DNA of 64,000 nucleotides from Candidatus Electronema sp. JM (lineage in GTDB: Bacteria; Desulfobacterota; Desulfobulbia; Desulfobulbales; Desulfobulbaceae): NCBI RefSeq assembly GCF_048287415.1, contig NZ_JBLWEN010000001.1, positions 88,790-152,789 of the forward strand, read 5' to 3'. Every line of letters begins with the position of its first letter. Positions within the stretch are counted from its first letter, which is position 1. Below are positions 35,194 through 63,717 of the stretch, one piece after another. The notes beneath the pieces are model-generated. The model did no database searches. It had not been told where the DNA came from and saw only the letters and a program-made list of their open reading frames with translations. The position numbers were made by a program, and so were the translations under genes.

Positions 35194-38100
35194 ATGAATA
35201 CTACCCAGCCGCCGCCCATCGCCTCCAAGGCTCTTGAAGCCAACTTCCAGCAGACCGCCAGTGCCGTTGCAATTTCTCCCCGCTACGCCCCGCTGCGGGA
35301 GGCCGTGGCCCGCTATCAGGGCTTGTCCGCCCGGCTGGAGCACCTGCTCTACGAAATCAGCCACCCGTTCCGCAACTGGCAGCTCATCATCGCCGAGCTG
35401 CGGCCCTTTGTCCTCAAGAATCTCAATCATTACCTCAGCCATGCGCAGGGGCCGGACTGCTTCGCCCTCTTCAGCTCGATCTTCCTGGACGCGCTGAAGG
35501 ACTCGCGCAAAAACAGCAAGGTCATCGCCCTGACCATGGAGGCCATGCTCGCCTATGCGGACAAAGTCGTCGCCTCGCTCAAGCCGGACATGCTGCCGCT
35601 CTACGGCCCGCAGCTCAACGCTTTTTTCGAGCAGCTCGCCCGCTTGGACGAGATAGACAGCAGCCTGATGGCGCACATGGTGCAGGGCCATCATCCGATG
35701 AAGAAGATGGCGGCCCAGCTCATCAGCCTGAGCCGCAGCGCGGGCGCGGAAACCTTCTCCTGCGCTGCGGCGGCCAAGCTGCTGCGGAAAATCCTCGAAA
35801 TCAACTATGCCTGCTGGCTGGGCGAAGAGGATCCGCAGCCTTGGTTCGAGTCGCAGTGCGGCGGCGGCAGCTGCTGCGGTCAGGCCGGAACCGACTTGGC
35901 GGCGATCTCTCACAGCCGGATGCGCGAGCATCTGACCGCGCTGGAGCAGATCAGCATTGACGAGGATCCGCAGGAGGCCCTCAGCCGCATCTTGGAGCTG
36001 CCCGCGCATATCGACATCGTCCGCCTCTACCGGGAAATCCCCGGCAAATTAGGCGAACATGCTGCGGACACCGACCCGGCGGCGGTGGAGAACCGGAAGC
36101 TCTTCTTCCTCTTCCGCATCATGGAGACCTCCGGCCTCTCGCTCATTCATGAGGAAACCCTGCGCGAGATCAACCGTTCTTTGGTGCAGCTCATCCGCCG
36201 TCAGAGCTTTGACGAGATTGCCGAGTTTTTCACCACCGCCTTTCACTTGCTCAAGGCCAATGTGCGCAAATATCCGCACACTTCGCTGCAATGTATTCAG
36301 GTCATCGGCGGTGAAGTCTTCCAGCGCGGCAACTCGCGTTTAGTTGAAGCCTTCCTCTTCGAGACCGTGCGCTTCGGCTTCCAGCACGCCAATGTCATGG
36401 GCGTGGACGAGGACTGGCAGCCGATCAGCAACCCGGCGCATTTGGCCAACATCCGGGTCTGGCTGAACTTGATCATGCAGGAGCCGAAATGGTGCTCGAC
36501 GCTCTTCTCGGCCCTGATCATCAACCTGCGTCTCTCCGGCACCTGCGTCAAAGACACCGACCTCTTCCAGCGCGACATCACCCAGCTCCTCAATCATCCC
36601 ATCGGCCCGATCTATAACTTGGCCAAGCAGTTCAGCAAGCTGATGCCGGTCTTCTTCAATGAGATCGGCGCGGAAGGCGAGCTGCGCGATGTCTCCACCG
36701 AATTGGATGAACTGCACAAGCGGCACGACGTGCTCATTCATTTTCTCCGCAAGCAGTCGCACGTCGAGTCGTCGAACCTGATTGTCGGCTTCATCCGGGC
36801 CATCTACAGCTTCTGGCTGACCTTGGACAAGAAACCGCTGGCCGCCTATCTGCCGGAAGAAATCCTCAGTCAGGTGGCGAGCAGCGGCCCTTATGTGGAC
36901 GAGCTGCATCTGCTCGCTCAACAGGTGCGCGAGGAATTGGAATACAGCACAGTGGACGAGCTGCTGACCTGGGACGAGGCGGAGCGGAAAGACTGGCTGC
37001 TGCGCCAGAGCGACATTTCCGCTGGCGAGCGCAAACGCTTTGACCTGCTGGTGCGGATGTTCAAGCTGCTCCACCACAAATACAGCTTGGGCATGGATGA
37101 GCTGCGCGGTCAGCTCGAGCACGCGGTGCAGAACGGCTTCCCGGAAATGACCGAGCTGCTGGAGGTTTTGGAGCACGGCGACACCTGGACCTGCTTGGAC
37201 GCAGTGCTGACGCAATTAGAGCAGCTTAAAGAGACCATCCTCAGCGACAAGAAATTTGCGCCGAAGGAGGAAATTTACTACAAGCGGCACATCGCGGTGG
37301 ATATTCCTTCCGTCTATGGCCGCTATTCGGAGCGCAAATTTGACGCGCTCGGCCTGACCTTCCGCTTGGAGAGCCTGGCCAATATTTATTTGGAACGGCT
37401 GAACCGCTCGATCAATCTCGGCTTCATCACCCAAGCCACCTTCATCGGCATCGCCAAAAGCCTCAGCCTCTCTCTCCGCGCCCTGAAGATTGACGGCATC
37501 AGCAGCCGCCGCTTGGACACCTACACCAGCCTGCTCAACTCCTCGATCAGCATCAAACGCTTCACCTACACCCAGCACTTGGACATCTTCCGTGGGTTGT
37601 CAGAAGGGGTGAAGGATGTGATTTATGCCTATTACACCAATATTCATCAGAACAATCTCTCGGTCATCATTCCCCAGATCGGCGGCGAGAATCTGCTGAC
37701 CAAAAACCGGACGCTCTGGGACGAGAAGGACATGTCCTCGACCGTGCACCGCCTTTCCGAGTCCTTCTTCCGCGACCTGATCGCAGCCACCTTCGGCCTC
37801 CAGCATTTGGACAACTTCATCACCCGCATCATCCACACGCTGGAGGCGCAGCGCGACATTCTCGACGAGCAGACCCTCGACCTGCTCATGACCTACAACC
37901 CGGAAATCGCCATCTCCTCGCTCTACAACGAGAATCCGCTCACGCACAACCTGATTCATCTCGGCAACAAGGGCTTCAACCTCATGCTCTTGGCCAACGA
38001 CGGCAAGCCGGTGCCGCCCGCCTTCATCATCACCACTGAAATATTCCGCTGCTGGCAGGCGGTGCAGGGCTTCACCAAGGCGCGGGAGGAGTTTATGCAG

Positions 38101-39444
38101 CGGCTGCACACCTCCATCACCGGCTTGGAGGAGCGCACAGGCCGCCGCTTCGGCTCGCCGGAAAACCCGCTGCTGCTTTCGGTGCGTTCCGGCGCGGCGA
38201 TTTCCATGCCCGGCATGATGACTACGATCCACAACGTCGGCCTGAACGAGGATTTGCTGGAGGAGCTGTGCGTCAAGCACCCGGAGCAGGAGTATTTTCT
38301 CTGGGACACCTACCGCCGCTTCCTGCAATCTTGGGCGATGGGCGAAGGCATGGGCCGCGAGGAGTTCGGCGCGCTGATGAACGCGCACAAGAAACGCTAC
38401 GGCAAGCGGCTGAAACGCGAATTCAGCCCGGCGCAGATGCGCGAGCTGGCTCTTGAATACCGCAACGCCATGCGGCGGCACGGATGCAGCGCGCCGGAAG
38501 ATCCTTGGCTTCAGCTGGTGCGGGCGGTGGAGATGGTGCTGGATTCGTGGAGCACCCATAAAGCCCGCCAGTACCGCCACCTGATGGCCGTCTCCGACGA
38601 CTGGGGCACAGCAGTGATTGTCCAGACGATGGTCTATGGCAACCGCAATCAGCAGTCCGGCAGCGGCGTGCTCTTCACCGCCCATCCCTACCGCAAGGTG
38701 CGGCGGGTCGCGCTCTGGGGCGATTACGCCTCCGGTGATCAGGGCGAGGACATCGTCTCCGGCCTTGTCACCAGCTATCCGATCTCGGTCGAGCAGGCGG
38801 AGCTGGACGGGCGTTCGGTCGAGCAGAGCCTCGAACGCCGCTTCCCGGAGATCTACGAGCAGCTCCTCAGCATCTCCCGCGACTTGGTGTACACTAAAGA
38901 ATGGAACCCGCAGGAGATTGAGTTCACCTTTGAAAGCCCTGACCCGGACGATCTCTACGTGCTCCAGACCCGCGACATGATCACCATCAAGAAGAAGGAG
39001 CATTTCCGGGTCTTCGAGGAAAGCGAGGCGCAGCAGGCGGCGGTGCTCGGCAAGGGCATCGGCGTGAGCGGCTCCGCCATCTCCGGCCTGGCTGTCTTCA
39101 CCGACGAAAACATCCGCCAGCTCCGCCACGAGCAGCCGGACATGCCGCTCATCCTCCTCCGCCAGGACACGGTGCCGGAGGACATCCGGGAAATCTCCAT
39201 GTGCGACGGCCTGCTCACCGCGCGCGGCGGCCAGACCTCGCACGCTTCCGTGGTCGCAACGCGCTTGGAGAAAACCTGTGTGGTCGGCTGCCGCGACTTG
39301 CAGGTCTTCGAGGACAAGGAGCAGGCGGCCATCAACGGCCTTGTGATAAAATTCGGCGACCCGGTCTCCATTGACGGGCGCAGCGGCCTCTTCCTGCGCG
39401 GCATCCATCCGACGCGAGAAGAGGTGCATATTTTGCCGCTGTAG
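35194..39444 (+). CDS. Giant 1416-aa protein. An unknown approximately 900-aa N-terminal region is followed by PPDK-type ATP-grasp (PPDK_N) and PEP-utilizing phosphohistidine (swivel) domains. It lacks a PEP/pyruvate-binding TIM barrel.
   Basis: The C-terminal third reads LGNKGFNLMLLANDGKPVPPAFIITTEIF...NPLLLSVRSGAAISMPGMM...HLMAVSDDWGTAVIVQTMVYGN...RGGQTSHASVVATRLEKTCVVGC, the conserved His motif. The ORF ends 60 aa later. The N-terminal 900 aa have no motif I recognise. Confidence 0.75.
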   Translation: MNTTQPPPIASKALEANFQQTASAVAISPRYAPLREAVARYQGLSARLEHLLYEISHPFRNWQLIIAELRPFVLKNLNHYLSHAQGPDCFALFSSIFLDALKDSRKNSKVIALTMEAMLAYADKVVASLKPDMLPLYGPQLNAFFEQLARLDEIDSSLMAHMVQGHHPMKKMAAQLISLSRSAGAETFSCAAAAKLLRKILEINYACWLGEEDPQPWFESQCGGGSCCGQAGTDLAAISHSRMREHLTALEQISIDEDPQEALSRILELPAHIDIVRLYREIPGKLGEHAADTDPAAVENRKLFFLFRIMETSGLSLIHEETLREINRSLVQLIRRQSFDEIAEFFTTAFHLLKANVRKYPHTSLQCIQVIGGEVFQRGNSRLVEAFLFETVRFGFQHANVMGVDEDWQPISNPAHLANIRVWLNLIMQEPKWCSTLFSALIINLRLSGTCVKDTDLFQRDITQLLNHPIGPIYNLAKQFSKLMPVFFNEIGAEGELRDVSTELDELHKRHDVLIHFLRKQSHVESSNLIVGFIRAIYSFWLTLDKKPLAAYLPEEILSQVASSGPYVDELHLLAQQVREELEYSTVDELLTWDEAERKDWLLRQSDISAGERKRFDLLVRMFKLLHHKYSLGMDELRGQLEHAVQNGFPEMTELLEVLEHGDTWTCLDAVLTQLEQLKETILSDKKFAPKEEIYYKRHIAVDIPSVYGRYSERKFDALGLTFRLESLANIYLERLNRSINLGFITQATFIGIAKSLSLSLRALKIDGISSRRLDTYTSLLNSSISIKRFTYTQHLDIFRGLSEGVKDVIYAYYTNIHQNNLSVIIPQIGGENLLTKNRTLWDEKDMSSTVHRLSESFFRDLIAATFGLQHLDNFITRIIHTLEAQRDILDEQTLDLLMTYNPEIAISSLYNENPLTHNLIHLGNKGFNLMLLANDGKPVPPAFIITTEIFRCWQAVQGFTKAREEFMQRLHTSITGLEERTGRRFGSPENPLLLSVRSGAAISMPGMMTTIHNVGLNEDLLEELCVKHPEQEYFLWDTYRRFLQSWAMGEGMGREEFGALMNAHKKRYGKRLKREFSPAQMRELALEYRNAMRRHGCSAPEDPWLQLVRAVEMVLDSWSTHKARQYRHLMAVSDDWGTAVIVQTMVYGNRNQQSGSGVLFTAHPYRKVRRVALWGDYASGDQGEDIVSGLVTSYPISVEQAELDGRSVEQSLERRFPEIYEQLLSISRDLVYTKEWNPQEIEFTFESPDPDDLYVLQTRDMITIKKKEHFRVFEESEAQQAAVLGKGIGVSGSAISGLAVFTDENIRQLRHEQPDMPLILLRQDTVPEDIREISMCDGLLTARGGQTSHASVVATRLEKTCVVGCRDLQVFEDKEQAAINGLVIKFGDPVSIDGRSGLFLRGIHPTREEVHILPL

Positions 39445-50912: not shown

Positions 50913-51341
50913 AGTCAGCAGTCAAAGGAATAAAAATGCAGCTCAACAGCCTGCTCCGCCTGCTGGCAAAGACTTTTGCCGAGGAGGGCGGGCATAAATG
51001 AAGGGGAGCAAAGCACGTGCTGCAGCTGCTCCGCCAGCAAAAGAAAGCAGCCTGCCACTCTCGCCGCCGCCATCTGACACCAGCGCGGCTCAACTCGGCA
51101 CTCTTCTGTTTTTTTCTCGCAGCATCCTAAAAATACGGCTGTTTCAGCCTGCCGTGTTATTTCAGCGTTCTTCCTGCTGAAATAATGTGTCAGGCTGCTG
51201 TTTTCCTCTTTGCTTCCGCCGCAGAATTGAGTAAATAACTCCCGCTGAAGCTGCGTGCGCAGCACTGTCTGCCAGTCTGCGCCGCAACCTGCTCTGCCTG
51301 CAAACAAATTGAACCACTTCAACATAAAGGAGAGACCAACG

Positions 51342-52265
51342 ATGTACATGTACCTGCCTGTCGCCCTCACCAGCGTGAACTTCCTGCTGGTGTCGGGCAT
51401 CGGATTCACGGTCGGAATGCTGTCCGGCCTTTTCGGCGTGGGAGGTGGCTGGCTGATGACCCCCCTGCTGATGATGATCGGCATTCCGCCCACCATTGCT
51501 GCGGGCACGGACGCGAACCAGATTGTGGCCGCCTCCACCTCCGGCATGTACACCCACTGGCGGCTGGGCAATGTGGACTACAAGATGGGCATCTGTCTGC
51601 TCATCGGCAGCTTCCTCGGCGGCGCTTTCGGCGTGCAGGTCATCAAAGTGCTCACCGCCACTGGCGGCGCGGACTTCCTGATCAAGATCACCTACGTGCT
51701 CATGCTGGGCATAGTCGGCTCCTTCATGTTTGTCGAGAGCCTGACAGCGATGAAGAAGGCCAAGAGCGGCGAGGCCAAGCCTGCCGCGCCAAAGGACAAT
51801 GCCAAGAAGAGCCTGATCATGCGTCTGCCCTTGCAGACCACCTTTGAGAAGTCCGGCGTGTCCTTCTCCGCGCTGGTGCCGGTGGGCCTTGGCGCCTTTG
51901 TCGGCCTGCTGGCGGCGATCATGGGCGTGGGCGGCGGCTTCCTCATGGTGCCGGTGATGATCTACATGCTGCGCATTCCGATGCACGTGGTGGTCGGCAC
52001 CAGCCTGTTCCAGATCCTCTTCACCTGCATTGAGGTGACCTTCCTGCAAGCCTACTACAACCGGACTGTTGACTTCCTCCTCGCCCTGCTCCTCCTGATC
52101 GGCTCGGTCTTCGGCGCACAGATCGGAGCGAAGCTGGGCCGCAAGCTGCACGGCGACCAGCTCAAGATCCTCCTTTCCGTCATCGTCCTGTCCGTGACCG
52201 TGAAGCTGGTTTTCGACTTGATACTCCAGCCTGCCAACCTGCTTTCCTACGCTGGAGGACATTGA
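51342..52265 (+). CDS. TauE/SafE (DUF81, TSUP) family anion exporter
   Basis: It has two internal repeats with GxGGG motifs (LFGVGGGWLMTPLLMMIGIPP ; IMGVGGGFLMVPVMIYMLRIP). The start is at MYMYLPV, preceded by AAGGAG. Confidence 0.8.
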   Translation: MYMYLPVALTSVNFLLVSGIGFTVGMLSGLFGVGGGWLMTPLLMMIGIPPTIAAGTDANQIVAASTSGMYTHWRLGNVDYKMGICLLIGSFLGGAFGVQVIKVLTATGGADFLIKITYVLMLGIVGSFMFVESLTAMKKAKSGEAKPAAPKDNAKKSLIMRLPLQTTFEKSGVSFSALVPVGLGAFVGLLAAIMGVGGGFLMVPVMIYMLRIPMHVVVGTSLFQILFTCIEVTFLQAYYNRTVDFLLALLLLIGSVFGAQIGAKLGRKLHGDQLKILLSVIVLSVTVKLVFDLILQPANLLSYAGGH

Positions 52266-53029
52266 TCATGCGCATGATGAAAACAGCCCTGCTCGCAGCC
52301 GCCGCGCTCGCGCTCTCCGTTCATGCCGCCGCTGCGGCAAGCATTCAGGCCGCTCCGTCGGACATCAAAATATCCCTGTTCTACCACGGCGCGGCTGTGG
52401 AGGTCAAAGGACAGGCTGCGCCGGGCGAGGACGTGCTGGTCAAAGTCACGCCCTCCGAGCAGCATGAGTTCCACCTCAAATACAAGGGCAAGGCCGCAGG
52501 CATCTTCTGGATGAAGCTCGGCACCTTGGTGTTTGAGAACCTGCCCAGCACCTATCTGCTCGCCTCCTCCGGCCCGGTTGACAAGGTGCTGGACGCGGAG
52601 GCGCGGACTGCCGAGAACGCGGGCTTGGACGCTTTGCAGAAGAAGGCGGTGATCAAGGCGGAGAAAGGCGCGATGCCTGCTGGCGACTGGTTCGGCCAGT
52701 TCCTTGATTTCAAGAAGAAGGAGAAGCTCTACAATGTTGAGGAAGGCACGGTGAAGGTCGGCGCGGACGGCAGCTACAGCTACACGCTGGCCTGGCCGTT
52801 CCAGGCTCCTCCGGGCAGCTACAAGATTGAGGCTGTCACCGCCAAAAACGGCAAGGTGACAGGCCACGCCGAGACAGCGCTCACGGTTGAGCTGACCGGC
52901 ATTGTCGCCCTGCTGGCTAAGATGTCCGCTGACAACCGCACGCTGTACGGCATCATCTCCATTGTCGTGGCTGTCGCCGCCGGTTTCGGCGTGGGCATGA
53001 TCTTCAAGAAGGGCGGCGGCTCGCACTGA
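52262..53029 (+). CDS. TIGR02186-like periplasmic/TM protein, the usual DUF81 partner
   Basis: It has a signal peptide and then a soluble domain. The C-terminal TM is IISIVVAVAAGFGVGMIF. It overlaps the TauE stop by 4 nt. Confidence 0.5.
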   Translation: MIMRMMKTALLAAAALALSVHAAAAASIQAAPSDIKISLFYHGAAVEVKGQAAPGEDVLVKVTPSEQHEFHLKYKGKAAGIFWMKLGTLVFENLPSTYLLASSGPVDKVLDAEARTAENAGLDALQKKAVIKAEKGAMPAGDWFGQFLDFKKKEKLYNVEEGTVKVGADGSYSYTLAWPFQAPPGSYKIEAVTAKNGKVTGHAETALTVELTGIVALLAKMSADNRTLYGIISIVVAVAAGFGVGMIFKKGGGSH

Positions 53030-53208: not shown

Positions 53209-53293
53209 TTGCACTATAGTGGAAGCAGCCATTGCACTACAGTGGAAACCTCGGTTGCACCATAGTGCAAACATCGGTTGCACTATAGTGCAA
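53209..53293. promoter_or_regulatory. Array of four 16-bp palindromic sites (TTGCAC-NATA-GTGCAA) at exact 23-bp spacing, about 120 bp upstream of the ROCO start
   Basis: Units start at 53209, 53232, 53255 and 53278. Units 3 and 4 are perfect palindromes. Units 1 and 2 have the half-site variant GTGGAA. Confidence 0.8.
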
Positions 53294-53412
53294 CCGCAAG
53301 CCACAGCCTGCTGGCCGCTTGGCTGCGAGGAAGCTGCAAGTATCCGAGCCATGCTCGAAGGCATTGCAGGGGCACCCTTAGCACAACCACACACCCACGG
53401 AGGAACGAGGCG

Positions 53413-55434
53413 ATGAGCAAAGAAGAAGCCTTGCAGCTAATTAAAGAGGCTGCGGAGACAGGGGCAACGTGGCTTAATCTCTTTAATCAAGGATTGAGTG
53501 AAATACCACCTGAGGTGTTTGCGCTTAAGCAGCTCACCTATCTTGGTCTCACTCATAATCGTCTCGCCTTTCTACCGCCAGAACTGTTTGAGATGAAGCA
53601 GCTCACCCAGCTTGAACTCAGCGACAATTGCCTTATCTCATTACCGCCTGAGGTGTTTACACTCAAACAATTAACCTTGCTTAACCTCATTCGCAACCAC
53701 CTTGTCACCCTACCGCCAGAGATTAATCAACTACCCAAGTTAAAAGATATTTGGTCTTTCGATAACCCCCTCGTCTCTCCTCCTTACGAAATAGCTATCA
53801 AAGGCATCTCAGCCATACGCGAATACTTCGCTGAAATGGAAGGCGAGAGCAAGGAGCTGGCCGAGGTCAAGATCATCCTTGTGGGCGAAGGCGCATCGGG
53901 CAAGACCTCATTAGTCAGGCGGCTGCGCGGGGAGCAGTTCGACCCGCACGAGCCAATGACGCACGGCATCAGCATCAACAAATGGCGGCCCGCAAGCGCA
54001 GGCCAGCTGCCCTGCTGCAATGTCTGGGACTTCGGCGGCCAAGAGATCATGCACGCCACGCACCAGTTTTTCCTTTCCCGCCGCAGCCTGTACGTCCTTG
54101 TCCTCGACAACCGGCGCGACGAGCGGCCCGAATACTGGCTGCGCTACATCGAAACCTTCGGCGGCGATTCGCCGGTCTTAGTGGTGCTCAACAAGCAGGA
54201 CATCAATCCCGGCTTTGATCTCAACCGGCCTTTTCTGCACGAGAAATACCCGTTCATCAAGGGCTTTTGGCCGCTTTCCTGCCACAGCGGACAGGGCATG
54301 GCGGCATTCACGCAAGCCTTGCACGAGGAGTTAGACAAGGTGCCCTTGAGCAAGAACCGCTGACCCGCAACCTGGTTCCGGGCAAAGGAAAAGCTGGAGC
54401 AGCTGCACGAGCCGCGCATCAACTACGAACGCTTCGAGCAAATCTGCCTTGAAGCCGGGGTGAAGGGCGCGACCACGCAGCAGGTCTTGGTGGATTTCCT
54501 CAACGATCTGGGCACGGTCATTCACTTTGATCAATTTGAGCTGAACGATCATCACGTCCTTAATCCGCAATGGGTGACAGAGGCGGTGTACAAGATCATC
54601 AACGCGCCGTCGGTGGCACATGCCAAGGGCCTGCTGCACGTGGATGCGCTGGCGGACATCTTAGCAAAGAAGAAGGACAGCGAGCATCGTTATTATCCCG
54701 CTGATCACCATTACATCATCGAGCTGATGAAGAAGTTCGAGCTGTGCTATCAAGTGGGTGAGAGCGAGGTGCTGATACCGCAGCTTTTGGCCGTGCCTGA
54801 GCCTTCCTTCACCTTTTATTACAGCAATGCCCTGCGTTTTGTTCTCCATTATGAGGACTTCCTGCCGCCGTCTGTCATGCCCCGCTTTATTGTCAATCGG
54901 CATAAAGAGATTCAAGGCGAACTGCGCTGGCGCAGCGGCGTTGTCCTGAAGAATGCGCAGCTTGATGCCAGCGCGGTGGTGCGGGCGGATGACGAGGCCC
55001 GCCGCATTCATATCGCTGTGACCGGCAAGGAGCGCAAAATCTTCCTCGCCCTGATTTGGCTCACTCTGCGGGAAATCAATGCGGGCTTTGAAGGCTTGAA
55101 GGTCAGCGAGCGCGTGCCCATGCCGGATGAGCCGGAACGCAGCGTGGATTACGAGACACTTCTCAGCTATGCGGAACAGGGCTTGGAAAAGATTATCCCC
55201 GAAGGCACGAAAAAGGCATATAGTGTGAAAGAGCTGCTGGAACGGGTGCATTTCGCCAATGAAAGCGAGGGCAGGCAGATGCTGGCTTTGGCTGAGGGTG
55301 AACGGAAAGGCGGAGCAGTGAACAAAACAGGCGCCGCATTGAACACCATGTTCAAGCTGGAGCCTTCAGTTTTTGGCGTGGGAATCAACCTCAATGCGAT
55401 GTTTGACGCTCTGCTGAAATGGCAGAGGAAGTAA
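53413..55434 (+). pseudogene. ROCO-type signalling GTPase (LRR - Roc/Ras-like GTPase - COR) interrupted by a single in-frame TGA at 54361..54363
   Basis: There are LRRs at 53413 onwards. The Roc P-loop is ILVGEGASGKTSL, with DFGGQE and NKQD motifs. After the stop, the same frame continues (PATWFRAKEKLEQLHEPRINYERFEQICLEAG...) into a COR-like approximately 320 aa. The tool ORFs 53278..54363 and 54460..55434 are in the same frame. Confidence 0.8.
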
Positions 55435-55545
55435 GCCCGCAACCGCTTGGGCCTGAGAATCCTAAGTGCTTGGGATTTTGGCCGAGGCGTTGCTTTGAAT
55501 AACTCGCGCAGCTTATTGGCTGCTCTGAAGATAAAGAAATCTGCA

Positions 55546-55785
55546 ATGAGATGCGTATGCTGCGGAGGGCCGCTCAAAAGCGGCACAGTGACATTCAGCT
55601 ATGAGGATGAGGAAGCATACATCTTTGTTGAGCATGTTCCGGCTGATGTATGCAGTCATTGCGGCGAGAAAGTGTATTCCCCGGCTGTTGCGGACATGCT
55701 GCTGGATATCGCTCAAAGGAAGAGCGAGCCAGTCAAGATGCTCCATATCCCTGTTTATGATTTTGCTCAAACGAAGAGAACATGA
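55546..55785 (+). CDS. YgiT-type zinc-finger protein (MqsA N-terminal-domain-like, no HTH)
   Basis: It has two CxxC pairs (CVCCGG...CSHCGE) spaced as in the YgiT/MqsA zinc ribbon. Its stop overlaps the next start (ATGA). Confidence 0.55.
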   Translation: MRCVCCGGPLKSGTVTFSYEDEEAYIFVEHVPADVCSHCGEKVYSPAVADMLLDIAQRKSEPVKMLHIPVYDFAQTKRT

Positions 55786-57314
55786 CTCCACCTGTCGGCC
55801 TGGCCAAGCACGAGCAGCTGCAAGCGCTTGCAGCTCAATACGGCTGCCCTGTCCTGGAATACAGCGAGAAGGTCAGCGTGCCGTTCCTCATCCTCATTCA
55901 GCTCAATGCGGAGCAGCTGCGGCAGGAAGGCTGGCTGCCGCTACACGTCACGGAAGAGAAGGTGAAAATCCTCACGCACCGCGCCCCGGACGAGGTCGCC
56001 GCCGCTGTCCGCCAGACGCTGGGCGAGGTGGAGCTTGATTTTGTCCTCACTGTGCCGCATGACTTTATCCGGGTCTTTGAGCACAGCTGCGATCTCAACC
56101 CCAGATTCCCCATGCCCGCAGGCCGCACGCCGCTGGCCAGAGTGCGCACTTACTTCGCAGGCCGCCGCTCGCTTTTCGCGCACTACCGCACCTTGATGGC
56201 CAAAAGCCGCACCGATCTGGCCACCGTCCGCACCGCGCTGTCCTTCATGACCATCGCCCTGCTCGGCGTGCGGGTCTTCGGCCTGGGCACGCTGGCAGTG
56301 CTGGAGCTGCCGCTCTTTCTCCTCGGCGCATGGGTCTGCGTTGACAGCATCGTCAGCTACCTGCCTGCCCGCCGGGTGAAAAGCCGTCTGCCCGCCTGCT
56401 CCGGCACCACGCCGACCAACGGCACCACAGTCTTGGCGGCCTCGAACGCGGAGGATTTCCCGCTCTTCCGCCGCCTGCCTGAGACACCGGGCGCAGCCGC
56501 CTTGCGGGCAGGCTGGACCAAGCTCACCCCGCTGATGCGCCGCCGCTTTCTCGCCAGCGACCGCACCGACATGGCCGAGGAGCGGACAACGCTGGCCTGC
56601 CTCCGCACCAAAATGGCGAAGGCGCGCACCGGCCTGGCTTTTGTCCGCACCGGCCTGGCCTTTTTCTCCCTCGGCTTCGGCCTGATGCGGGCCTTTCCCG
56701 AAGTCATTTATTGGCACATCTTAGATGTGAGTTTGATGGCCGCCGGAATCCTCATGGCACTGGAAGGCTTCTTCTGGTATAAAAAAGGTCGGCCTGCGGG
56801 CGAGGAAGGGCAGGCTTCGGTGGAGAAAGCGAACAAGGCGGGCACGATCTGGGATTTCTTCTTCCCGCATGTCGCGGCCTGCCCCAGCCCCAATCCCCTG
56901 CAAACCCCGCCAGTGCGCCGCTCGCACGCGCCGGGCCTCTGGGCGACCACAGGTCTAGCTTTGGAGCGCACCGTCTTAGCTGACCGCCGCAATGTCATGG
57001 CGCGGCTACGGACGGTCATGGCCCGCTCGCGCACGGGCATGGCCTTCATCCGCACCGGCCTGAGCATCCTGCTGATCGGTGTCACCTTCTTGGTCTCCTT
57101 CCCGGATGCGGGCCTGCTCTGGCAGCTGCTCGACTGGTGCCTGATCCTCGGCGGCTCCGTCTTAGTTGCGGACGGCTTTTACTGGACGGTGCCTGCGGAG
57201 CGGAAACGGACGGAGTTCCCCTACTGCTTCGCGGATTTGGAAATAGCTCTGGCGGATTACGGCATTCCCTCCCGCCATTGGCGGAAGACGGTGTTTTATC
57301 GTGCAAGCAAGTAA
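55782..57314 (+). CDS. T2SS-E N-terminal (GspE_N/MshEN-like) domain fused to three DUF202 (YidH-like) membrane repeats
   Basis: The N-terminal approximately 110 aa resemble the GspE N-domain (AAQYGCPVLEYSEKVSVPFLILIQLNAEQLRQEGWLPLHVTEEKVKILTHRAPDEVAAAVRQTLG). Three blocks follow, each [RT.LA..RT.[LM]A..RT.LA..RTGL + hydrophobic helix]. Confidence 0.65.
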   Translation: MTPPVGLAKHEQLQALAAQYGCPVLEYSEKVSVPFLILIQLNAEQLRQEGWLPLHVTEEKVKILTHRAPDEVAAAVRQTLGEVELDFVLTVPHDFIRVFEHSCDLNPRFPMPAGRTPLARVRTYFAGRRSLFAHYRTLMAKSRTDLATVRTALSFMTIALLGVRVFGLGTLAVLELPLFLLGAWVCVDSIVSYLPARRVKSRLPACSGTTPTNGTTVLAASNAEDFPLFRRLPETPGAAALRAGWTKLTPLMRRRFLASDRTDMAEERTTLACLRTKMAKARTGLAFVRTGLAFFSLGFGLMRAFPEVIYWHILDVSLMAAGILMALEGFFWYKKGRPAGEEGQASVEKANKAGTIWDFFFPHVAACPSPNPLQTPPVRRSHAPGLWATTGLALERTVLADRRNVMARLRTVMARSRTGMAFIRTGLSILLIGVTFLVSFPDAGLLWQLLDWCLILGGSVLVADGFYWTVPAERKRTEFPYCFADLEIALADYGIPSRHWRKTVFYRASK

Positions 57315-58539
57315 CGAGACGCTCCTGACGGCCTTGGCCCGGAAGGGCGTTCTGCCGGCAGAGACGCTGGCGGAGATTGAGCAGGCCGCCACGCTGCGCG
57401 GGCTGGCGCCTGCGACGCTGCTGGTCTATGAGTACAATGTGCCGCGCGTCACGCTGCTGGAGGCCTTGGCTGAGATTCACGCCTGCCAGCCGGTGGAGTA
57501 TGATGAGCGGCTGCCCATCCCGCCGGACTTCCTGCCCAAGCTCTCCGGTCCGGCCTTGCTGAAGGAAGGCTGGTTCCCCATCTTCTTGGAGGAGGACGGC
57601 ACTGTGACGGTCGCCGCCTCCAACCCTGCCGCGCCGGGCCTGTGCGCTTCGGTGCGGCAGACGCTCGGATGCAGCAATGTGGTCTGCATGGTCACCCTGC
57701 CGGAGGACGTGCAGTGGTTCATTCAGGATTATCTGCACGCGCCGCCCGGCCTGCTTATCGGCACTGAGCGCACTGGCCTGGCCTATTGGCGCAACACCAT
57801 GGCCCAGTGGCGGACGCTGCTCGCCTGCTGCCGCACCGACATGGCCAAGGCGCGCACAGCACTGGCCTTTGGCCGCTTTGGCCTCTCGCTGATCACGGTC
57901 GCCATGACCTTGCTGCGCCTGACTCCGCCGCGCCTGCCCAAGCCTGCGGCCTTCCTCCTCCTGGCTTTGGGCCTGCTCTGCAACGGACTGGGCGTGGCGG
58001 TGTATCTGCGGATCCGCCGCTCGCAGCTACGCCCGCCCGGCAGCCAGACGATCATGGAAGTGACTGCGGCCACCATCTCGTTCTTGGAGCAGTACCATTT
58101 CCCGGAAGAGCTGAAGGGCAGCCTGCCGCCGCCGCAGACCGGCGCATCCATGCTCGCCCGCCTGGGAGAGCTGCTCGCCGACTACTCGACCATCCTTTTC
58201 CCGGCTCCGCCCAGCCGCGAGCGCACGCATCTGGCCCGTGAGCGCAACGTGCTGGCGGCCCAGCGCACGGTGGCTGCTTGTTACCGCACCATCTATGCCC
58301 GCGCCCGCACTGGGCTGGCCTTCACCCGCACTGGCGTGAGCTTCTTCAGCTTTGGCGTGGGCCTGATCCTCTATTTCGGCCTCGGCCTGAACACCATCTT
58401 TGATGCGCTGCTGATTGCCGCAGGCCTGCTGATGATCACCGACGGCCTGCTCTGGTATCTGCCGGTGCGCAAAGAGCAGGCCGAGCTGCCGCGCTCGCGC
58501 AGCGGTGCCCTGGCTGGCTGGGAGGATGACGACGAATGA
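57301..58539 (+). CDS. GspE_N/MshEN-like domain fused to two DUF202 membrane repeats (paralog of the upstream gene)
   Basis: The N-terminal region (LLTALARKGVLPAETLAEIEQAATLRGLAPATLLVYEYNVPRVTLLEALAEIH...WFPIFLEEDGTVTVAASNP) is followed by ERTGLAYWRNTMAQWRTLLACCRTDMAKARTALAF and RERTHLARERNVLAAQRTVAACYRTIYARARTGLAFTRTG. It has a GTG start that overlaps the upstream gene by 14 nt. Its stop overlaps the kinase ATG. Confidence 0.6.
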   Translation: MQASNETLLTALARKGVLPAETLAEIEQAATLRGLAPATLLVYEYNVPRVTLLEALAEIHACQPVEYDERLPIPPDFLPKLSGPALLKEGWFPIFLEEDGTVTVAASNPAAPGLCASVRQTLGCSNVVCMVTLPEDVQWFIQDYLHAPPGLLIGTERTGLAYWRNTMAQWRTLLACCRTDMAKARTALAFGRFGLSLITVAMTLLRLTPPRLPKPAAFLLLALGLLCNGLGVAVYLRIRRSQLRPPGSQTIMEVTAATISFLEQYHFPEELKGSLPPPQTGASMLARLGELLADYSTILFPAPPSRERTHLARERNVLAAQRTVAACYRTIYARARTGLAFTRTGVSFFSFGVGLILYFGLGLNTIFDALLIAAGLLMITDGLLWYLPVRKEQAELPRSRSGALAGWEDDDE

Positions 58540-59942
58540 AGATCCTGCACCGCATCTGCCTGTCTGACGCGATCAACATCTGCCTTTTGGTGCTGATCGG
58601 CCTCTTTGCGATCCACTCCTTTGACGAGCTGCTGGCCAAGTTCCGCTTCACCACGATTGCTGACGGCCTCAACGCGGCCTTTTTGGAAATGCGCATCGCC
58701 GAGAAGAACTATCTTCTTTACGGCGACAAGGAGGCCCTGAACTCCATTTCCACCCGCATTGCTGAGACTGTCCCGGTCTTGGAGAAAGAGCGGGAGAACA
58801 TCGAGCAGGTCACGGGCGGCAGCGACTACAAGTACCTTGTCCAGCTGCTGGCCGAGTACCGCAGCGATGTCCTTGCCCTGCGAGACGGGCATGGCGCGGA
58901 CAAGCGGGTGCGGGAGTCCGGCCACAGCCTGCGCGCCTTCTCCGAACATCTCACCGCCATGGAGCGGGACAAGGTGGCGCAGATCATCGAGCGCTCGAAA
59001 GCCGTGCTCCGTCATTCCTTCTGGGCGGTGATCTTCTTCGCCTTTGTCTTCACCCAGTGGAATGCGCGGAGCATCCGCCGTTCCCTTCGGCAGGTGGAGC
59101 AGCTGACACGCTCGATTGCCAAGGGCGAGTTCTCCCTTATCCAAGAGAAGCCAGCGGCAGATGAGCTGGGTTCCATCGTCCAGGCGATCAGCACGATGTC
59201 GGACGAACTGAACCGGCGCGAAGAGGAGATTGTCCGCTCCAAGCGCCTGGCTTCCATTGGTGTGTTGGTGGCCGGTGTGGCCCATGAGCTGAACAATCCG
59301 CTCAACAACATCTCCATGATTGCGCAGACCTTCACAGAGCTGCACGACAAGCTGAACAGCGGGCAGCAGCTGGAGTTCATGGCCCAGATTGATGAGGAGA
59401 CCGAACGCCTGCGGGTGACAATCAAGAACCTGCTTGATTTCTCCAAGCCCAAGGAGAAGGAAATGGAGCCGCGCTGCCTGAACGAGGTGGCGCAGAAATG
59501 CATTGGCTTAGTGCAGAACATGCTGACCATCGGCAACATCCGCACCAAGCTGGCCTTGGCCGAAAACCTGCCCCAGCTCTGCTTGGACGAGCACCAGATT
59601 CAGCAGGTGCTGGTGAACATGCTGATCAACGCCATTCAGGCCATGCCGCCCGGCGGCGTGCTCAGTGTCAGCACCCGCCTGCTGCCTGAGCAGCACATGG
59701 CGGAAATAGAAATCAGCGACACCGGCAAGGGCATTCCGCCGGAGCTGATCAACCACATCTTCGACCCCTTCTTCACGACTAAAGACGAGGGCGGCACCGG
59801 CCTTGGTCTCTGGGTCAGCTACGGAATCATCAAAAACCACGGCGGGGAGATTCACGTCAAGAGCACAGTGAACAAGGGCACGACCTTCACTGTCACCCTG
59901 CCGACAGACTTGGAGCGATGTCAGCTATGCACAGCATCATGA
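58536..59942 (+). CDS. Sensor histidine kinase (two TM segments, HAMP, HisKA, HATPase_c)
   Basis: The H-box is VAHELNNPLNNISMIAQTF. The G-boxes are DTGKGIPPELINHIFDPFFTTK and GGTGLGLWV. Confidence 0.85.
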   Translation: MKILHRICLSDAINICLLVLIGLFAIHSFDELLAKFRFTTIADGLNAAFLEMRIAEKNYLLYGDKEALNSISTRIAETVPVLEKERENIEQVTGGSDYKYLVQLLAEYRSDVLALRDGHGADKRVRESGHSLRAFSEHLTAMERDKVAQIIERSKAVLRHSFWAVIFFAFVFTQWNARSIRRSLRQVEQLTRSIAKGEFSLIQEKPAADELGSIVQAISTMSDELNRREEEIVRSKRLASIGVLVAGVAHELNNPLNNISMIAQTFTELHDKLNSGQQLEFMAQIDEETERLRVTIKNLLDFSKPKEKEMEPRCLNEVAQKCIGLVQNMLTIGNIRTKLALAENLPQLCLDEHQIQQVLVNMLINAIQAMPPGGVLSVSTRLLPEQHMAEIEISDTGKGIPPELINHIFDPFFTTKDEGGTGLGLWVSYGIIKNHGGEIHVKSTVNKGTTFTVTLPTDLERCQLCTAS

Positions 59943-60307
59943 TTATTGACGACGAACGGATAGTGGGCGACATGGCCAAACTGTCCCTCAGTCAGGATGG
60001 CTACGATGTGGAAACGTTTCTCGACGGCGAGAGCGCGCTGAGGCGGCTCAAGGAGAAGAGCTTCGCTGTCGTGGTCACGGATTTGAAGATGAAAGGCGTG
60101 GACGGGCTGGAAGTCTTGCGCAACGTCAAGCAGCTTTATCCGGCAACAGCGGTGATCATGATCACTGCCTTCGCCAATCTTGATGTGGCCATCGAGGCTC
60201 TGCGCGACGATGTTTTTGATTTCTTCCCCAAGCCGGTGAAGATCAAAGACCTGAAAGCGTCGGTCAAGCGGGCAGTGGAAAAGGGAAACATGCCGCAGGC
60301 AGGCTGA
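59918..60307 (+). CDS. Single-domain response-regulator receiver (CheY-like)
   Basis: Key motifs are IMIIDDE...VVVTDLKMKGVDG...ITAF...K. It overlaps the kinase 3' end. Confidence 0.8.
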   Translation: MSAMHSIMIIDDERIVGDMAKLSLSQDGYDVETFLDGESALRRLKEKSFAVVVTDLKMKGVDGLEVLRNVKQLYPATAVIMITAFANLDVAIEALRDDVFDFFPKPVKIKDLKASVKRAVEKGNMPQAG

Positions 60308-60542: not shown

Positions 60543-60674
60543 ATGAACAAAGAAGAAGCCTTGCGGCGGATTAAACACGTGGAGGAGACAGGAGCAACGA
60601 GGCTTGATCTGAGCTTTCAAAGATTGACTGAACTGCCGCCTGAACTCTTTCAAATAAAAAATGAACCAACTTGA
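60543..60674 (+). pseudogene. 43-codon stub of a ROCO/LRR-family N-terminus with a conserved RBS region
   Basis: MNKEEALRRIKHVEETGATRLDLSFQRLTELPPELFQ... parallels MSKEEALQLIKEAAETGATWLNLFNQGLSEIPPEVFA... at 53413. The upstream GGAGGAACGAGGCGATGA is shared with the ROCO gene. Confidence 0.6.
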
Positions 60675-63261
60675 TAGTTCTGCCGACAAAGGAGCAACTC
60701 TCCGCAGCCTGTGGACTGCCTTGCTCAAGCTGCTGCCGGGCCGCAGCGCGCCGCCAGTCAGCCCGCGTCTGGTCTTTGAACGCTTTCAGAAGGTGCTGGC
60801 CAGCAACAATCAGGCTTTGGAGATCATTGCCGATCTGGGCGAGAAGCTGGGCGGCGACTACCTCTTTGACATGCGCTATGTTGAGTCCTCGGTTGAGGAG
60901 CTGATTGCGGCGGTGCACAGCTCAGTGCTGGCGGTGAATGAGCTGTGCGGCGACCGTCACGCCAAGCTGCATCAGGTGCATGAGCGTCTGAGCGAGGACT
61001 TGCGCCTGACCCTGGCTGGCCGTGAAGACCGCGAGGGGCCGCTGATCTTCACGCTGGATGAGATCCGCCCGCGCAACTGGGCCTTGGTCGGCGGCAAGGC
61101 CGCGCACTTGGCGGTGATGCGGCATGATCCGCAGCTGCGCGTGCCGGACGGCTTTGTCATCACCGCCCGCGCCTACAACGATCTGATTGACCATAACGGC
61201 CTGCGGCAGCAGCTCACTGCTTTTGAGGAGCTGATGTCCGCCACTGAGCCGGATGCCGACCTGCTGGAGGAGCAGCGCAGCTTGATTGAACAGGCCGTGC
61301 TCGCTGCCGCGCCGCCGCCGGGCCTGTTGGACGCGCTTGCCCAAGCAGCAGGCCGTCTGCCGCAGACCAGCAAGCCGCTCTTCTTGGCGGTGCGCAGCTC
61401 GGCGCAGGAGGAAGACATGGACTTCTCCTTTGCCGGCCAGTTCACGTCGGTGCTCAACGTGCCTGCCCAGCCGGATGCGCTCTTTGCTGCTGCCCGCGAG
61501 GTGATGGCCAGTCTGTTCTGCGCCGGGGCTGTGTCGTACCGCCGCCGCGTCTTCCCGGATGAAGGCAAGATGGCTATTGCCGTGGTCTGCCAGCGGATGG
61601 TGGATTCCCGCAGCAGCGGCATCGTCTTTTCGGTGGACACCATGCAGCTCGCTCACGACACGATGGTGGTGGTGGCCGCGTGGGGCCAAGGCGAGGCGGT
61701 GGTGGAAGGCGGCACAGCCACTGACACCTTCCAGCTCCACAAGGGGCCGCCGCTGCGCATCGCTGCCCGGCAGGTGGCGGACAAAGAGCAAGGCCTCTTT
61801 GCCGGAGCCGAGAGCGGCCTGACCAGCCGGGCCATCGCCAAGGAGCTGCGCACTGCGTCCTGTCTCTCAGACGATGAGCTGCTCCAGCTTGGCAGCACAG
61901 CCCTGCACTTGGAAACGCTCTTCAAGCGGCCGCAGGACATCGAATGGGCCTTTGACAGCAGCGGCCAGCTCTACATTCTCCAAGCCCGGCCCTTGGTGCT
62001 CAACACCCCGGCGCGGGAAAAGGCCCTGCCAGTCCGTGTGGAGCAGCACGAGGTCATCTGCGCCGGACAAGGCAAAGTGGCCCAGCAAGGCATTGCCGCC
62101 GGGCCAGTGCATTTGGTCAATTTTGCTGAGGAGACCGGCGAGTTCACGGAAGGCTCAGTGCTGGTCACGCACCACGATTCCTCCCGCCTCGTCACCTACA
62201 TCCAGCGGGCCGCCGGTGTCATCACCGAGACCGGCACGCCGGTCAGCCACATGGCCACCATCTGCCGCGAGTTCCAAGTGCCCTGCTTGGTCAATGTGGG
62301 CAGCATCCTCGGCAAGGTGCGCGAAGGCGAGCTGATCACCGTGGACGCGGAAGACCGCCGCATCTATCGAGGCTTAGTTGACGAGCTGCTGGTCTATCGC
62401 GCCACCTCCTGCATCAACCTGATGTCCAGCCGCGAGTTCCGCCTGCTCCGCCGCATTCTCAAGAAGGTCTCTGAGCTGCATCTGGTGGATCCGATGATGC
62501 AGGACTTCAGCATAGACGGCTGCCGCACCTATCACGACATTCTCCGCTTCTCGCATGAGTCAGCAGTGCAGGAGATGGTCAACCTTGGCCGCGATGAGCG
62601 GCGGCTGATCAAGGGCAGCATCGTCCGGCCGATGAAGCTGCCCATTCCCACCGGCATTCTGGTGATTGACATCGGCGGCGGCCTTGCCTCTGACGCGCCT
62701 GAGCGCGATGTGCCGTTTCAGGCCATTGCTTCCGTGCCCTTCCGTGCTGTGCTGCAAGGGATGCTCTTCCCGGAGATATGGCACAACAATCCTATGCCGG
62801 TAGGCATCCGCGACCTGATGAACAGCATGTTCAGTCCGATCCGCGAAGAGGCGGCGGAGCAGTACAGCGGCCACAACATCGCCATCATCGGCGGAAATTA
62901 TGTCAATCTTTGCTTTCGTCTGGGCTATCATTATAATATTATAGACGCGCACTGCGGCGAGGCGGAGCAGAACAACCATCTTTACTACCGCTTTCTGGGC
63001 GGCGTGACGGACATGACCAAACGCTCGCGCAGGGCGGCGATGATCGCGCAGATACTCAAGGAGTTCGAGTTCAATGTCCAGACCAAAGGCGACCTGGTCA
63101 CAGCCCGGCTCTCGCGCCTGCCGCAGCGGGAGGCCGAGCGCGCGCTGGACATCCTTGGCAGACTGGTGGGCTACACCCGCCAGCTGGATGTGCGCATGGA
63201 GAGCGACAATGATCCGGGCAGATATGCCGAAGCGTTCCTGAACGGGGAATACAGGGTTTGA
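60661..63261 (+). CDS. PEP-synthase/PPDK-like protein. It has PPDK_N ATP-grasp and PEP-utilizing phosphohistidine domains. The approximately 290-aa C-terminal region does not resemble the canonical PEP-binding barrel.
   Basis: Motifs include NWALVGGKAAHLAVM, FVITARAY, LFLAVRSSAQEEDMDFSFAGQFTSVLNV, AVVCQRMVDSRSSGIVFSVD, and the His domain TGTPVSHMATICREFQVPCLVNVG...GELITVDAEDRRIY. Confidence 0.8.
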   Translation: MNQLDSSADKGATLRSLWTALLKLLPGRSAPPVSPRLVFERFQKVLASNNQALEIIADLGEKLGGDYLFDMRYVESSVEELIAAVHSSVLAVNELCGDRHAKLHQVHERLSEDLRLTLAGREDREGPLIFTLDEIRPRNWALVGGKAAHLAVMRHDPQLRVPDGFVITARAYNDLIDHNGLRQQLTAFEELMSATEPDADLLEEQRSLIEQAVLAAAPPPGLLDALAQAAGRLPQTSKPLFLAVRSSAQEEDMDFSFAGQFTSVLNVPAQPDALFAAAREVMASLFCAGAVSYRRRVFPDEGKMAIAVVCQRMVDSRSSGIVFSVDTMQLAHDTMVVVAAWGQGEAVVEGGTATDTFQLHKGPPLRIAARQVADKEQGLFAGAESGLTSRAIAKELRTASCLSDDELLQLGSTALHLETLFKRPQDIEWAFDSSGQLYILQARPLVLNTPAREKALPVRVEQHEVICAGQGKVAQQGIAAGPVHLVNFAEETGEFTEGSVLVTHHDSSRLVTYIQRAAGVITETGTPVSHMATICREFQVPCLVNVGSILGKVREGELITVDAEDRRIYRGLVDELLVYRATSCINLMSSREFRLLRRILKKVSELHLVDPMMQDFSIDGCRTYHDILRFSHESAVQEMVNLGRDERRLIKGSIVRPMKLPIPTGILVIDIGGGLASDAPERDVPFQAIASVPFRAVLQGMLFPEIWHNNPMPVGIRDLMNSMFSPIREEAAEQYSGHNIAIIGGNYVNLCFRLGYHYNIIDAHCGEAEQNNHLYYRFLGGVTDMTKRSRRAAMIAQILKEFEFNVQTKGDLVTARLSRLPQREAERALDILGRLVGYTRQLDVRMESDNDPGRYAEAFLNGEYRV

Positions 63262-63273
63262 CAAGGAGACGGA

Positions 63274-63717
63274 ATGCAGCTTACAACCACGGCCAGCGAC
63301 AGCTCTGACCTGCTCATTATTGATGACGAGCCGATCATCGGCAAGCGGCTGCAACACACCTTCAGCAAAATTGGACTGAACGCGCAGGCCTTCACCAGCC
63401 CGCAGGCGGCGATGGAGCGTATCAGCAGTGCGCCGGTCCATGTGGTGATCACCGATTTCCGCATGAAGGGCATGGACGGCCTGGAGGTCTTCCGCCAGGT
63501 CAAAAAATTGAGTCCGCGCAGCAAGGTGATCATCATCAGCGGCTACGCCAGCCCGGAGACGGTGGACATCGCTTTTCAGGAAGGGGTGTTCGATTTTCTC
63601 GTCAAGCCGTTCCGCTTGGACGAACTGAAGGAGGCGGTGCGTCGGGCGCTGGAGGAGATCAGCAGGGAGCGGAAAGCAGAAGCGTCAGCCGCGCCATCTC
63701 CAGTGTATGGCATGTAG
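63274..63717 (+). CDS. Single-domain response-regulator receiver
   Basis: Key motifs are LLIIDDE...VVITDFRMKGMDG...IISGY...K. It starts 12 nt after the PPDK-like stop. Confidence 0.8.
   Translation: MQLTTTASDSSDLLIIDDEPIIGKRLQHTFSKIGLNAQAFTSPQAAMERISSAPVHVVITDFRMKGMDGLEVFRQVKKLSPRSKVIIISGYASPETVDIAFQEGVFDFLVKPFRLDELKEAVRRALEEISRERKAEASAAPSPVYGM

Follow-up and report, generated by a model that had tools for sequence, protein, structure and literature searches.

A pair of overlapping genes in the freshwater cable bacterium Candidatus Electronema sp. JM raises the question as to what kind of membrane assembly is formed when a GspE/PilB-type N-terminal domain is followed not by an ATPase but by repeated copies of the DUF202 membrane module. 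The two genes, A (55782..57314) and B (57301..58539), lie in a window of 64,000 nucleotides (NCBI RefSeq assembly GCF_048287415.1, contig NZ_JBLWEN010000001.1, positions 88,790 to 152,789 of the forward strand); coordinates of window features are positions in this stretch, on its forward (+) strand unless stated otherwise. DUF202 is widespread in bacteria, and its sole function so far comes from the yeast vacuolar transporter chaperone (VTC) polyphosphate channel. In A and B, the membrane units carry a ladder of arginines two rungs of which are equivalent to the residues lining the VTC pore, and the pair belongs to a conserved cassette with a two-component system and a dikinase. We tentatively read A and B as a heteromeric, VTC-like, Arg/Thr-lined conduit for an anionic substrate that would be placed under two-component control and work together with the dikinase, a reading that is plausible, if somewhat short of probable. 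What is known here is the DUF202/VTC-type membrane module; what is undescribed is the conserved system that embeds it, and a literature search found nothing on the A/B architecture, the cassette, the Arg-Thr heptad ladder or the function of bacterial DUF202 proteins.

Five DUF202 units in two overlapping genes

Both genes were recovered as open reading frames (ORFs) on the same strand, exactly where a first-pass annotation made from the bare letters had placed them: A opens with ATG and encodes 510 residues, B opens with GTG and encodes 412, and the end of A overlaps the start of B by 14 nucleotides, an overlap kept in three related loci (L001, L003 and L005). Each product is 100% identical to a protein of Candidatus Electronema sp. 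JM. The two are collinear, with ~33% identity across the N-domain and the first two units and one extra unit in A, which bears out their description as tandem paralogues. According to Pfam matches and AlphaFold2 (AF2) models, A consists of a truncated MshEN-fold domain, three DUF202 hairpin units and a conserved C-terminal tail, and B of a complete MshEN-fold domain and two DUF202 hairpin units. The AF2 model of A reaches a predicted local distance difference test score (pLDDT) of 82.7 and a predicted template modelling score (pTM) of 0.80 from a 59-sequence alignment, and that of B a pLDDT of 76.5 and a pTM of 0.56 from a 57-sequence alignment.

In Pfam, DUF202 (PF02656) scores 47.6 bits over three stretches of A and 45.2 bits over two stretches of B, about twice the gathering score of 23.4; scanned singly, the five units give 19.1 to 38.7 bits, and A unit 1, at 19.1 bits, is the only one under that threshold. 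The MshEN model scores 33.4 bits on B, above its gathering score of 23.1, and 22.6 bits on A, 0.5 bit short of it. No T2SSE AAA+ ATPase domain was matched by Pfam in either protein, and the earlier picture of a GspE/PilB-type N-domain, deprived of an ATPase and followed by three DUF202 modules in A and two in B, stands. No NCBIfam model matches A or B, and PADLOC returned no defence-system match, generic receiver-domain matches aside.

The first-pass annotation had itself raised the possibility that the periodicity of the two proteins is a low-complexity artefact, an Arg/Thr/Ala-rich ORF unrelated to DUF202 or GspE_N, and the sub-threshold scores of A unit 1 and of the MshEN domain of A would fit such an explanation. 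The whole-protein DUF202 scores argue the opposite, as do the conserved synteny and hundreds of full-length homologues of A and of B, found at 50-60% identity in several phyla with invariant columns and an exact 7-residue spacing; the artefact is already refuted by these data and its remaining probability is negligible. Database entries for the proteins carry the names “DUF202 domain-containing” or “GspE N-terminal domain-containing”. Clustering at 50% identity reduces the full-length family to only ~7 B-type and ~10 A-type clusters, and no natural fusion of A to B was found among 868 representative matches.

The arginine ladder and the pore residues of Vtc1

The five units are A unit 1 (56109..56387, residues 110-202), A unit 2 (56529..56837, residues 250-352), A unit 3 (56931..57209, residues 384-476), B unit 1 (57754..58023, residues 152-241) and B unit 2 (58207..58482, residues 303-394). 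In the AF2 models each unit is a helical hairpin, with a helix 1 of 52-56 residues and a helix 2 of 28-44 residues, in which the ladder is followed by two membrane helices. Hydropathy likewise gives two membrane spans per unit, ten in total (six in A, four in B), while the third span of canonical DUF202 was found in no unit, either by hydropathy or in the AF2 models. The repeat pattern proposed in the first-pass annotation is thus retained, whereas its single transmembrane helix per unit has to be replaced by two. Given cytoplasmic N-domains, every unit starts and ends in the cytoplasm, and the outer (periplasmic) loops of the A and B models are only 4-7 residues long.

Along helix 1, the pair R[T/S/N] appears exactly every seven residues, five or six times in each unit, within a heptad L-A-x-x-R-T-x that places alanine at position a and arginine at position d. 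The rungs are R115, R122, R129, R136, R143 and R150 in A unit 1; R254, R261, R268, R275, R282 and R289 in A unit 2; R396, R403, R410, R417 and R424 in A unit 3; R157, R164, R171, R178, R185 and R192 in B unit 1; and R308, R315, R322, R329, R336 and R343 in B unit 2. This makes 29 ladder arginines, six per unit and five in A unit 3, a count that takes in R254 and R192, which keep the register but are not followed by T, S or N. The E-R-T ... R-T motif of DUF202, located at the cytoplasmic start of the first membrane helix, is present in all five units and extended to these five or six rungs. We found no earlier paper describing a seven-residue Arg-Thr repeat.

In a 54-sequence alignment of the units (unit numbering), A10, R13, A17, R20, R27, R34, T35, R41 and G73 are invariant in all five, and A24, T28, A31 and G43 are at least 90% conserved; the ladder alanine is usually preceded by Leu or Met, and the conserved positions cluster on the g-a-d-e face of the heptad. 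Rungs R13 to R41 are common to all five units and occupy the same register relative to the membrane helix. A repeat alignment, proposed in the first-pass annotation as a check, upholds the five units, with 29-44% identity between unit groups in addition to the invariant columns; by comparison, identity within each unit group amounts to 60-76% across two phyla, which argues that the five units have been distinct and fixed for a long time.

Two further stretches of A are conserved outside its units. The C-terminal tail (57210-57311, residues 477-510) is modelled with low confidence and contains the strongly conserved residues P480, C482, Y493, G494, P496 and W500, and the linker between units 1 and 2 (56388-56528, residues 203-249) forms a small conserved β-hairpin with C206, T209 and G214. 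Either of them could be a partner-binding element.

In eukaryotes, DUF202 is the transmembrane domain of the VTC polyphosphate polymerase (PMC4400040), and SPX-VTC-DUF202 genes are on record (PMC12388464); the “unknown function” attributed to the domain in the first-pass annotation therefore does not extend to eukaryotes. Cryo-electron microscopy of VTC revealed a pentamer of three Vtc1, one Vtc3 and one Vtc4 subunits (3:1:1), whose channel is built from the five first transmembrane helices (TM1) (PMC9911596). Vtc1 has three membrane helices; its residues K24 and R31 line the channel, R31 forms the constriction, and mutating K24/R31 abolishes vacuolar polyphosphate (PMC9911596).

A Vtc1 sequence, the numbering of which agrees with PMC9911596, scores 64 bits on DUF202; its residues 24-85 align with model positions 1-67, so that K24 falls at position 1 and R31 at position 8. 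In the units, R27 falls at position 1 and R34 at position 8. On the basis of these shared model positions, unit R27 corresponds to Vtc1 K24 and unit R34 to Vtc1 R31, and both places are held by invariant arginines in all five units. A hidden Markov model (HMM) of the units aligned directly with Vtc1 pairs “ANERTFL” with “AkaRTgL” and puts R31-T32 of Vtc1 on R34-T35 of the unit. Beyond what Vtc1 offers, the units add a deeper rung, R41, and the cytoplasmic rungs R20 and R13, with R6 present in four of the five.

The likeness to the VTC channel consequently includes membership of the same Pfam family, heptad-spaced basic residues at the cytoplasmic start of the first membrane helix, five domains per assembly as compared with five units in A and B taken together, and the association of the membrane module with a phosphoryl-transfer enzyme. 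The differences are equally clear: units of two membrane helices and not three, concatenated 3+2 in two chains where VTC uses five subunits; a ladder of five or six rungs as opposed to two; MshEN-fold domains and a PpsA-like dikinase in place of the SPX and TTM/CYTH polymerase domains; and a location in the bacterial cytoplasmic membrane instead of the vacuole. That three units in A and two in B add up to the five domains of the VTC pore, in a partition that echoes its 3+1+1 composition, is suggestive by analogy but is not proof.

In comparison, the Escherichia coli proteins YidH and YidG contain the same domain, and their first membrane helix begins with the ERT...RT motif. YidH-type proteins differ in being ~115-140 residues long, with one domain, three membrane helices, two rungs and no cytoplasmic domain, and they are not part of the A-B cassette. 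A canonical DUF202 gene does lie downstream in 4 of 85 loci; one of them (L016, 13106-13522) encodes a single-domain protein of 138 residues, “MANERTFLAWIRT”, downstream of the cassette, and the other three are alike. Literature searches on “DUF202” returned VTC papers or prefix matches such as DUF2023, and YidH appears only in a D-alanine export screen, as a non-confirmed hit (PMC10299036).

Cytoplasmic domains and the conserved cassette

Fold and HMM match place the N-domains of both proteins in the MshEN/GSPII family. The N-domain of A (55794..56090, residues 5-103) lacks three of the four N-terminal helices; A of this lineage keeps one of them, and A orthologues of Nitrospirota retain all four. 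The N-domain of B (57322..57735, residues 8-145) has the full fold, including the four-helix subdomain that binds cyclic di-GMP (c-di-GMP) in MshE, with degenerate c-di-GMP motifs. MshE, PilF, XpsE, PilB and NfrB share this fold and its N-terminal placement before a membrane-associated machine; by comparison, A and B carry neither an ATPase nor a glycosyltransferase, and the domain of A is truncated. Precedent for such an arrangement exists, as MshEN domains are also fused to non-ATPase outputs, for example glycosyltransferases (PMC5013675).

This precedent would favour a c-di-GMP-gated membrane effector, in which nucleotide binding to the MshEN domains would switch the membrane module, in the manner of MshE, PilF or NfrB. 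The binding motif consists of two tandem 24-residue copies of RLGxx(L/V/I)(L/V/I)xxG(L/V/I)(L/V/I)xxxxLxxxLxxQ (PMC5013675) and was searched in strict and relaxed forms. Neither form occurs in any of the 57 B-type and 59 A-type proteins (0 of 116 family members), while an MshE sequence used as control matched both motifs. The best segments in the window satisfy 7 of 11 constrained positions in B and 8 of 11 in A, and the ligand-contacting Arg and Gln are absent from the N-domains of the family. The MshEN helix noted in B by the first-pass annotation belongs to a genuine four-helix subdomain, with only a partial ligand motif. Small deviations abolish c-di-GMP binding by the GSPII-A domain of PilF (PMC12002112); taken with the motif that no member matches, this means that c-di-GMP binding by the N-domains of A and B is not predicted. 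As A has moreover lost most of the ligand-binding subdomain, gating by c-di-GMP appears quite improbable. Protein docking, by analogy with the GspE-GspL and PilB-PilZ pairs, is the more likely role of these domains. A role in secretion or in pilus function was considered as well and rejected, since none of the 85 neighbourhoods contains such genes.

Three genes follow B. A HAMP-HisKA-HATPase sensor histidine kinase (58536..59942) starts 4 nucleotides inside the end of B and is followed by a stand-alone CheY-like response regulator of 129 residues (59918..60307) and a PpsA-like dikinase of 866 residues (60661..63261), all recognised by Pfam. A promoter and terminator scan of the cassette gave nothing above shuffled expectation. 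Relatives of the A/B pair were found in 228 of 185,579 genomes, sampled at one genome per species; their hosts are nearly all Desulfobulbales, including cable bacteria, or Nitrospirota (Thermodesulfovibrionales, Sulfobium, Dissulfurispiraceae), with one Thiotrichaceae genome and Hydrosulfovibrio in addition. Hydrosulfovibrio ferrireducens CB1MN (L056) and Thiovibrio sp. JS02 (L005) are cultivated carriers of the cassette. Gene order was assessed in 85 loci. Of 80 such loci, 78 have A immediately upstream of B; the kinase follows B in 62 of 77 under strict matching rules, and in all of L001-L005; in 66 of 72, the regulator comes straight after the kinase; and at least 53 of 63 have a dikinase behind the regulator. 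The complete order A-B-kinase-regulator-dikinase is found in L001 (Nitrospirae), L003 and L005 (Thiovibrio sp. JS02), and the cassette as such recurs in Nitrospirota, Desulfobulbales and Thiovibrio.

The dikinase is built from an N-terminal extension of ~130 residues, a PPDK_N ATP-grasp domain, a mobile His domain and a family-specific C-terminal domain of 290 residues, and it has a conserved histidine (VSHMA). Its similarity to PpsA is confined to the ATP-grasp and mobile His domains. Pfam scores are 250 bits for PPDK_N and 62 bits for the mobile His domain, and the phosphoenolpyruvate (PEP)/pyruvate-binding barrel, PEP-utilizers_C, was not matched; the NCBIfam PpsA model scores 312 against a cut-off of 598 and matches over positions 5-467. 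It resembles PpsA and the rifampicin phosphotransferase dikinase family in combining PPDK_N with a mobile phospho-histidine domain in the order of PpsA, and departs from them by its lack of a PEP/pyruvate C-terminal barrel, by its extensions at both ends and by the presence of up to four paralogues per locus. Its PDB sequence matches are confined to residues 124-577; the C-terminal domain gave no Pfam match and no PDB match, whether searched as a single sequence or as a 30-sequence profile, and its homologues were only dikinase fragments, the domain being found only as part of such dikinases. The cassette exposes an uncharacterised dikinase subfamily with a new C-terminal domain. A second stand-alone receiver ORF of ~147 residues (63214-63657, + strand) begins ~48 nucleotides before the dikinase stop codon, and elsewhere in the window a second dikinase-like protein of 1416 residues (35194-39441, + strand) carries PPDK_N and a mobile His domain at its C-terminal end, after ~960 residues without a Pfam match.

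A representative search also uncovered a sister family in which 8-20 consecutive R-T-x-L-A-x-x heptads precede a single DUF202 hairpin. Its members include P0303, P0306, P0309, P0321, P0336, P0355, P0373, P0375 and P0384, and loci L088 (8001-8738), L089 (2746-3867) and L091 (8001-8738) belong to it; a Cytidylate_kin2 (P-loop kinase) gene lies directly upstream of the ladder protein in three loci and adjacent to it in a fourth. In P0305 (L086, 8001-9092), the ladder and the hairpin are followed by a C-terminal receiver domain that is 46% identical to the stand-alone regulator of the window. Directly after it comes a PpsA-like dikinase of 864 residues (L086, 9094-11688), which is 32% identical to that of the window over residues 39-864, and two Usp genes, a receiver and another dikinase are found nearby. 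The P0303 locus assembles a dikinase, a metallophosphatase, the ladder protein, Cytidylate_kin2/BON, a receiver, Alph_Pro_TM, TauE and a HAMP kinase. In several settings, then, DUF202 proteins bearing ladders go together with a receiver domain and with an ATP-dependent phosphotransfer enzyme. This association speaks for an action of the regulator on the membrane proteins and for the dikinase as the enzyme with which they work.

The same relatives bring up a reading devoid of transport, in which the ladders would form a membrane-anchored coiled-coil stalk relaying or integrating signals of the kinase, the CheY-like regulator and the dikinase, with the hairpins serving only as anchors and the MshEN domains as adaptors. 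The many acidic residues and the single hairpin of the sister proteins are stalk-like, one sister variant is fused to a receiver domain, a two-component system is always part of the cassette, and the periplasmic loops of A and B are very short. However, the five ladder segments of A and B carry a net charge of ~+32 (manual residue count on the window sequences), which cannot be self-neutralised, and arginine at the core heptad position is unfavourable for a dry coiled-coil core. Furthermore, the one DUF202 assembly characterised so far, a channel, relies on the homologous basic residues (PMC9911596), and the long-term fixation of five distinct units is hard to explain by mere anchoring. A pure signalling scaffold is therefore a doubtful explanation for the A/B pair.

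A tentative conduit and its genomic surroundings

How could A and B operate as the proposed VTC-like conduit? Made together from overlapping genes, they would be inserted into the cytoplasmic membrane with six and four helices, respectively, and with their N-termini in the cytoplasm. The first ~35 residues of each helix 1, which bear the heptad ladder, would reach ~50 Å into the cytoplasm. All five ladder helices, three from A and two from B, would pack in parallel around one axis, mirroring the five TM1 helices of VTC; up to six stacked Arg/Thr rings, with their 29 arginines, would then line a conduit of strongly positive charge that leads from the cytoplasm into the membrane. At its cytoplasmic mouth, the MshEN-fold domains, held on linkers of ~10 residues, would probably dock a partner, be it the dikinase, the CheY-like regulator in its phosphorylated form or the two together. 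Gating or tuning of the assembly would be the task of the HAMP kinase and the regulator, and the dikinase would supply ATP-driven phosphoryl chemistry. The substrate would probably be polyanionic; by analogy with VTC, polyphosphate is the only candidate with a precedent, although polyphosphate specifically is, on present evidence, an unlikely choice.

Several points weigh against the conduit. The 3+2 ring rests on counting and analogy, and the units have two membrane helices where Vtc1 and YidH have three. The model of A alone is confidently predicted (pTM 0.80), so that A may be a self-contained bundle. A sequence search of the PDB with profiles of A, B and the five units did not find the VTC chains; the relatives it returned, PilF and PilB, concerned only the MshEN domain of B. 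TTM/CYTH (VTC) and SPX domains have no Pfam match in A, B or the three downstream genes, nor are they present among the conserved neighbour clusters examined or annotated. Polyphosphate kinases and phosphatases are equally missing from the conserved neighbour clusters, and no PPK or PPX gene was found among the window ORFs scanned. The ladders of the sister family are very long and nearly charge-neutral, with the look of a coiled-coil stalk more than of a pore. In the complete chromosome of Candidatus Electronema halotolerans (L052, 8476-12976), A, B, the kinase and the regulator are present without an adjacent dikinase. Lastly, we know of no role for polyphosphate outside the bacterial cytoplasm or for its export to the periplasm.

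A bolder version of the conduit would make the cassette a bacterial counterpart of VTC assembled from different parts, in which a 3+2 pseudo-pentamer would thread polyphosphate or another phospho-polymer across the membrane. At the channel mouth, the dikinase would take over from the TTM polymerase and synthesise or lengthen the polymer, a part that would fall to the Cytidylate_kin2-type P-loop kinase in the sister family; the long Arg-Thr ladder would act as a polymer-guiding tube, and the two-component system would switch the machine via the MshEN-fold docking domains. We consider this version improbable. In the usual picture, PPK enzymes make bacterial polyphosphate and keep it in the cytoplasm, and no membrane conduit is involved. 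The hosts of the cassette, cable bacteria and sulfur-cycling Desulfobulbales and Nitrospirota, are environmentally important and noted for polyphosphate storage. A bacterial family with five individually fixed DUF202 units, a greatly amplified basic ladder and a link to a phosphotransfer enzyme and a two-component system provides a concrete entry point to the role of bacterial DUF202 proteins, and it bears on the existence of membrane translocation of polyphosphate or another polyanion in bacteria.

The genes upstream of A may point to smaller substrates. A TauE/SafE-family anion exporter (51255..52265; Pfam, 168 bits) and an Alph_Pro_TM membrane protein (52262..53029; Pfam, 152 bits) precede A in the window as they do in 31 and 33 loci, respectively, and the TauE, Alph_Pro_TM and Usp genes are found upstream in ~33 of the 63 loci with enough upstream sequence; TauE and Alph_Pro_TM recur in the P0303 locus. 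As the hosts are almost all sulfur-metabolising (Desulfobulbales, cable bacteria, Thermodesulfovibrionales, Sulfobium, Dissulfurispiraceae and Thiotrichaceae), A and B might form a small-anion channel that passes phosphate or a sulfur oxyanion, such as sulfite or thiosulfate, alongside the TauE/SafE-type exporter of these sulfur-cycling anaerobes. However, a conduit of ~50 Å with six arginine rings exceeds the needs of a small ion, the dikinase is left unexplained and about half of the loci have no TauE, all of which renders a channel of this type unlikely. The literature searches yielded nothing on Alph_Pro_TM, nor on polyphosphate and dikinase in cable bacteria.

On the other side of the cassette, a metallophosphatase follows the dikinase in 10 loci. 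In the window, the place held by Usp genes in other genomes is occupied by a Roco gene and a small zinc-ribbon ORF. The LRR-Roc-COR (Roco) gene (53278-55434, + strand) is split by a single in-frame TGA at 54361-54363, beyond which the frame continues with the missing start of COR-A; the TGA could reflect a pseudogene, a sequencing error or read-through. The MqsA-like zinc-ribbon ORF (55447-55785, + strand) scores 27 bits in Pfam, below the cut-off of 30, and ends 4 nucleotides inside the start of A; none of the 25 largest neighbour clusters of the 85 loci contains it. Further away, on the reverse (-) strand, a DNA gyrase B gene (22340-26110) carries an intein, with an Intein_splicing match over residues 473-886 of its 1257-residue product.

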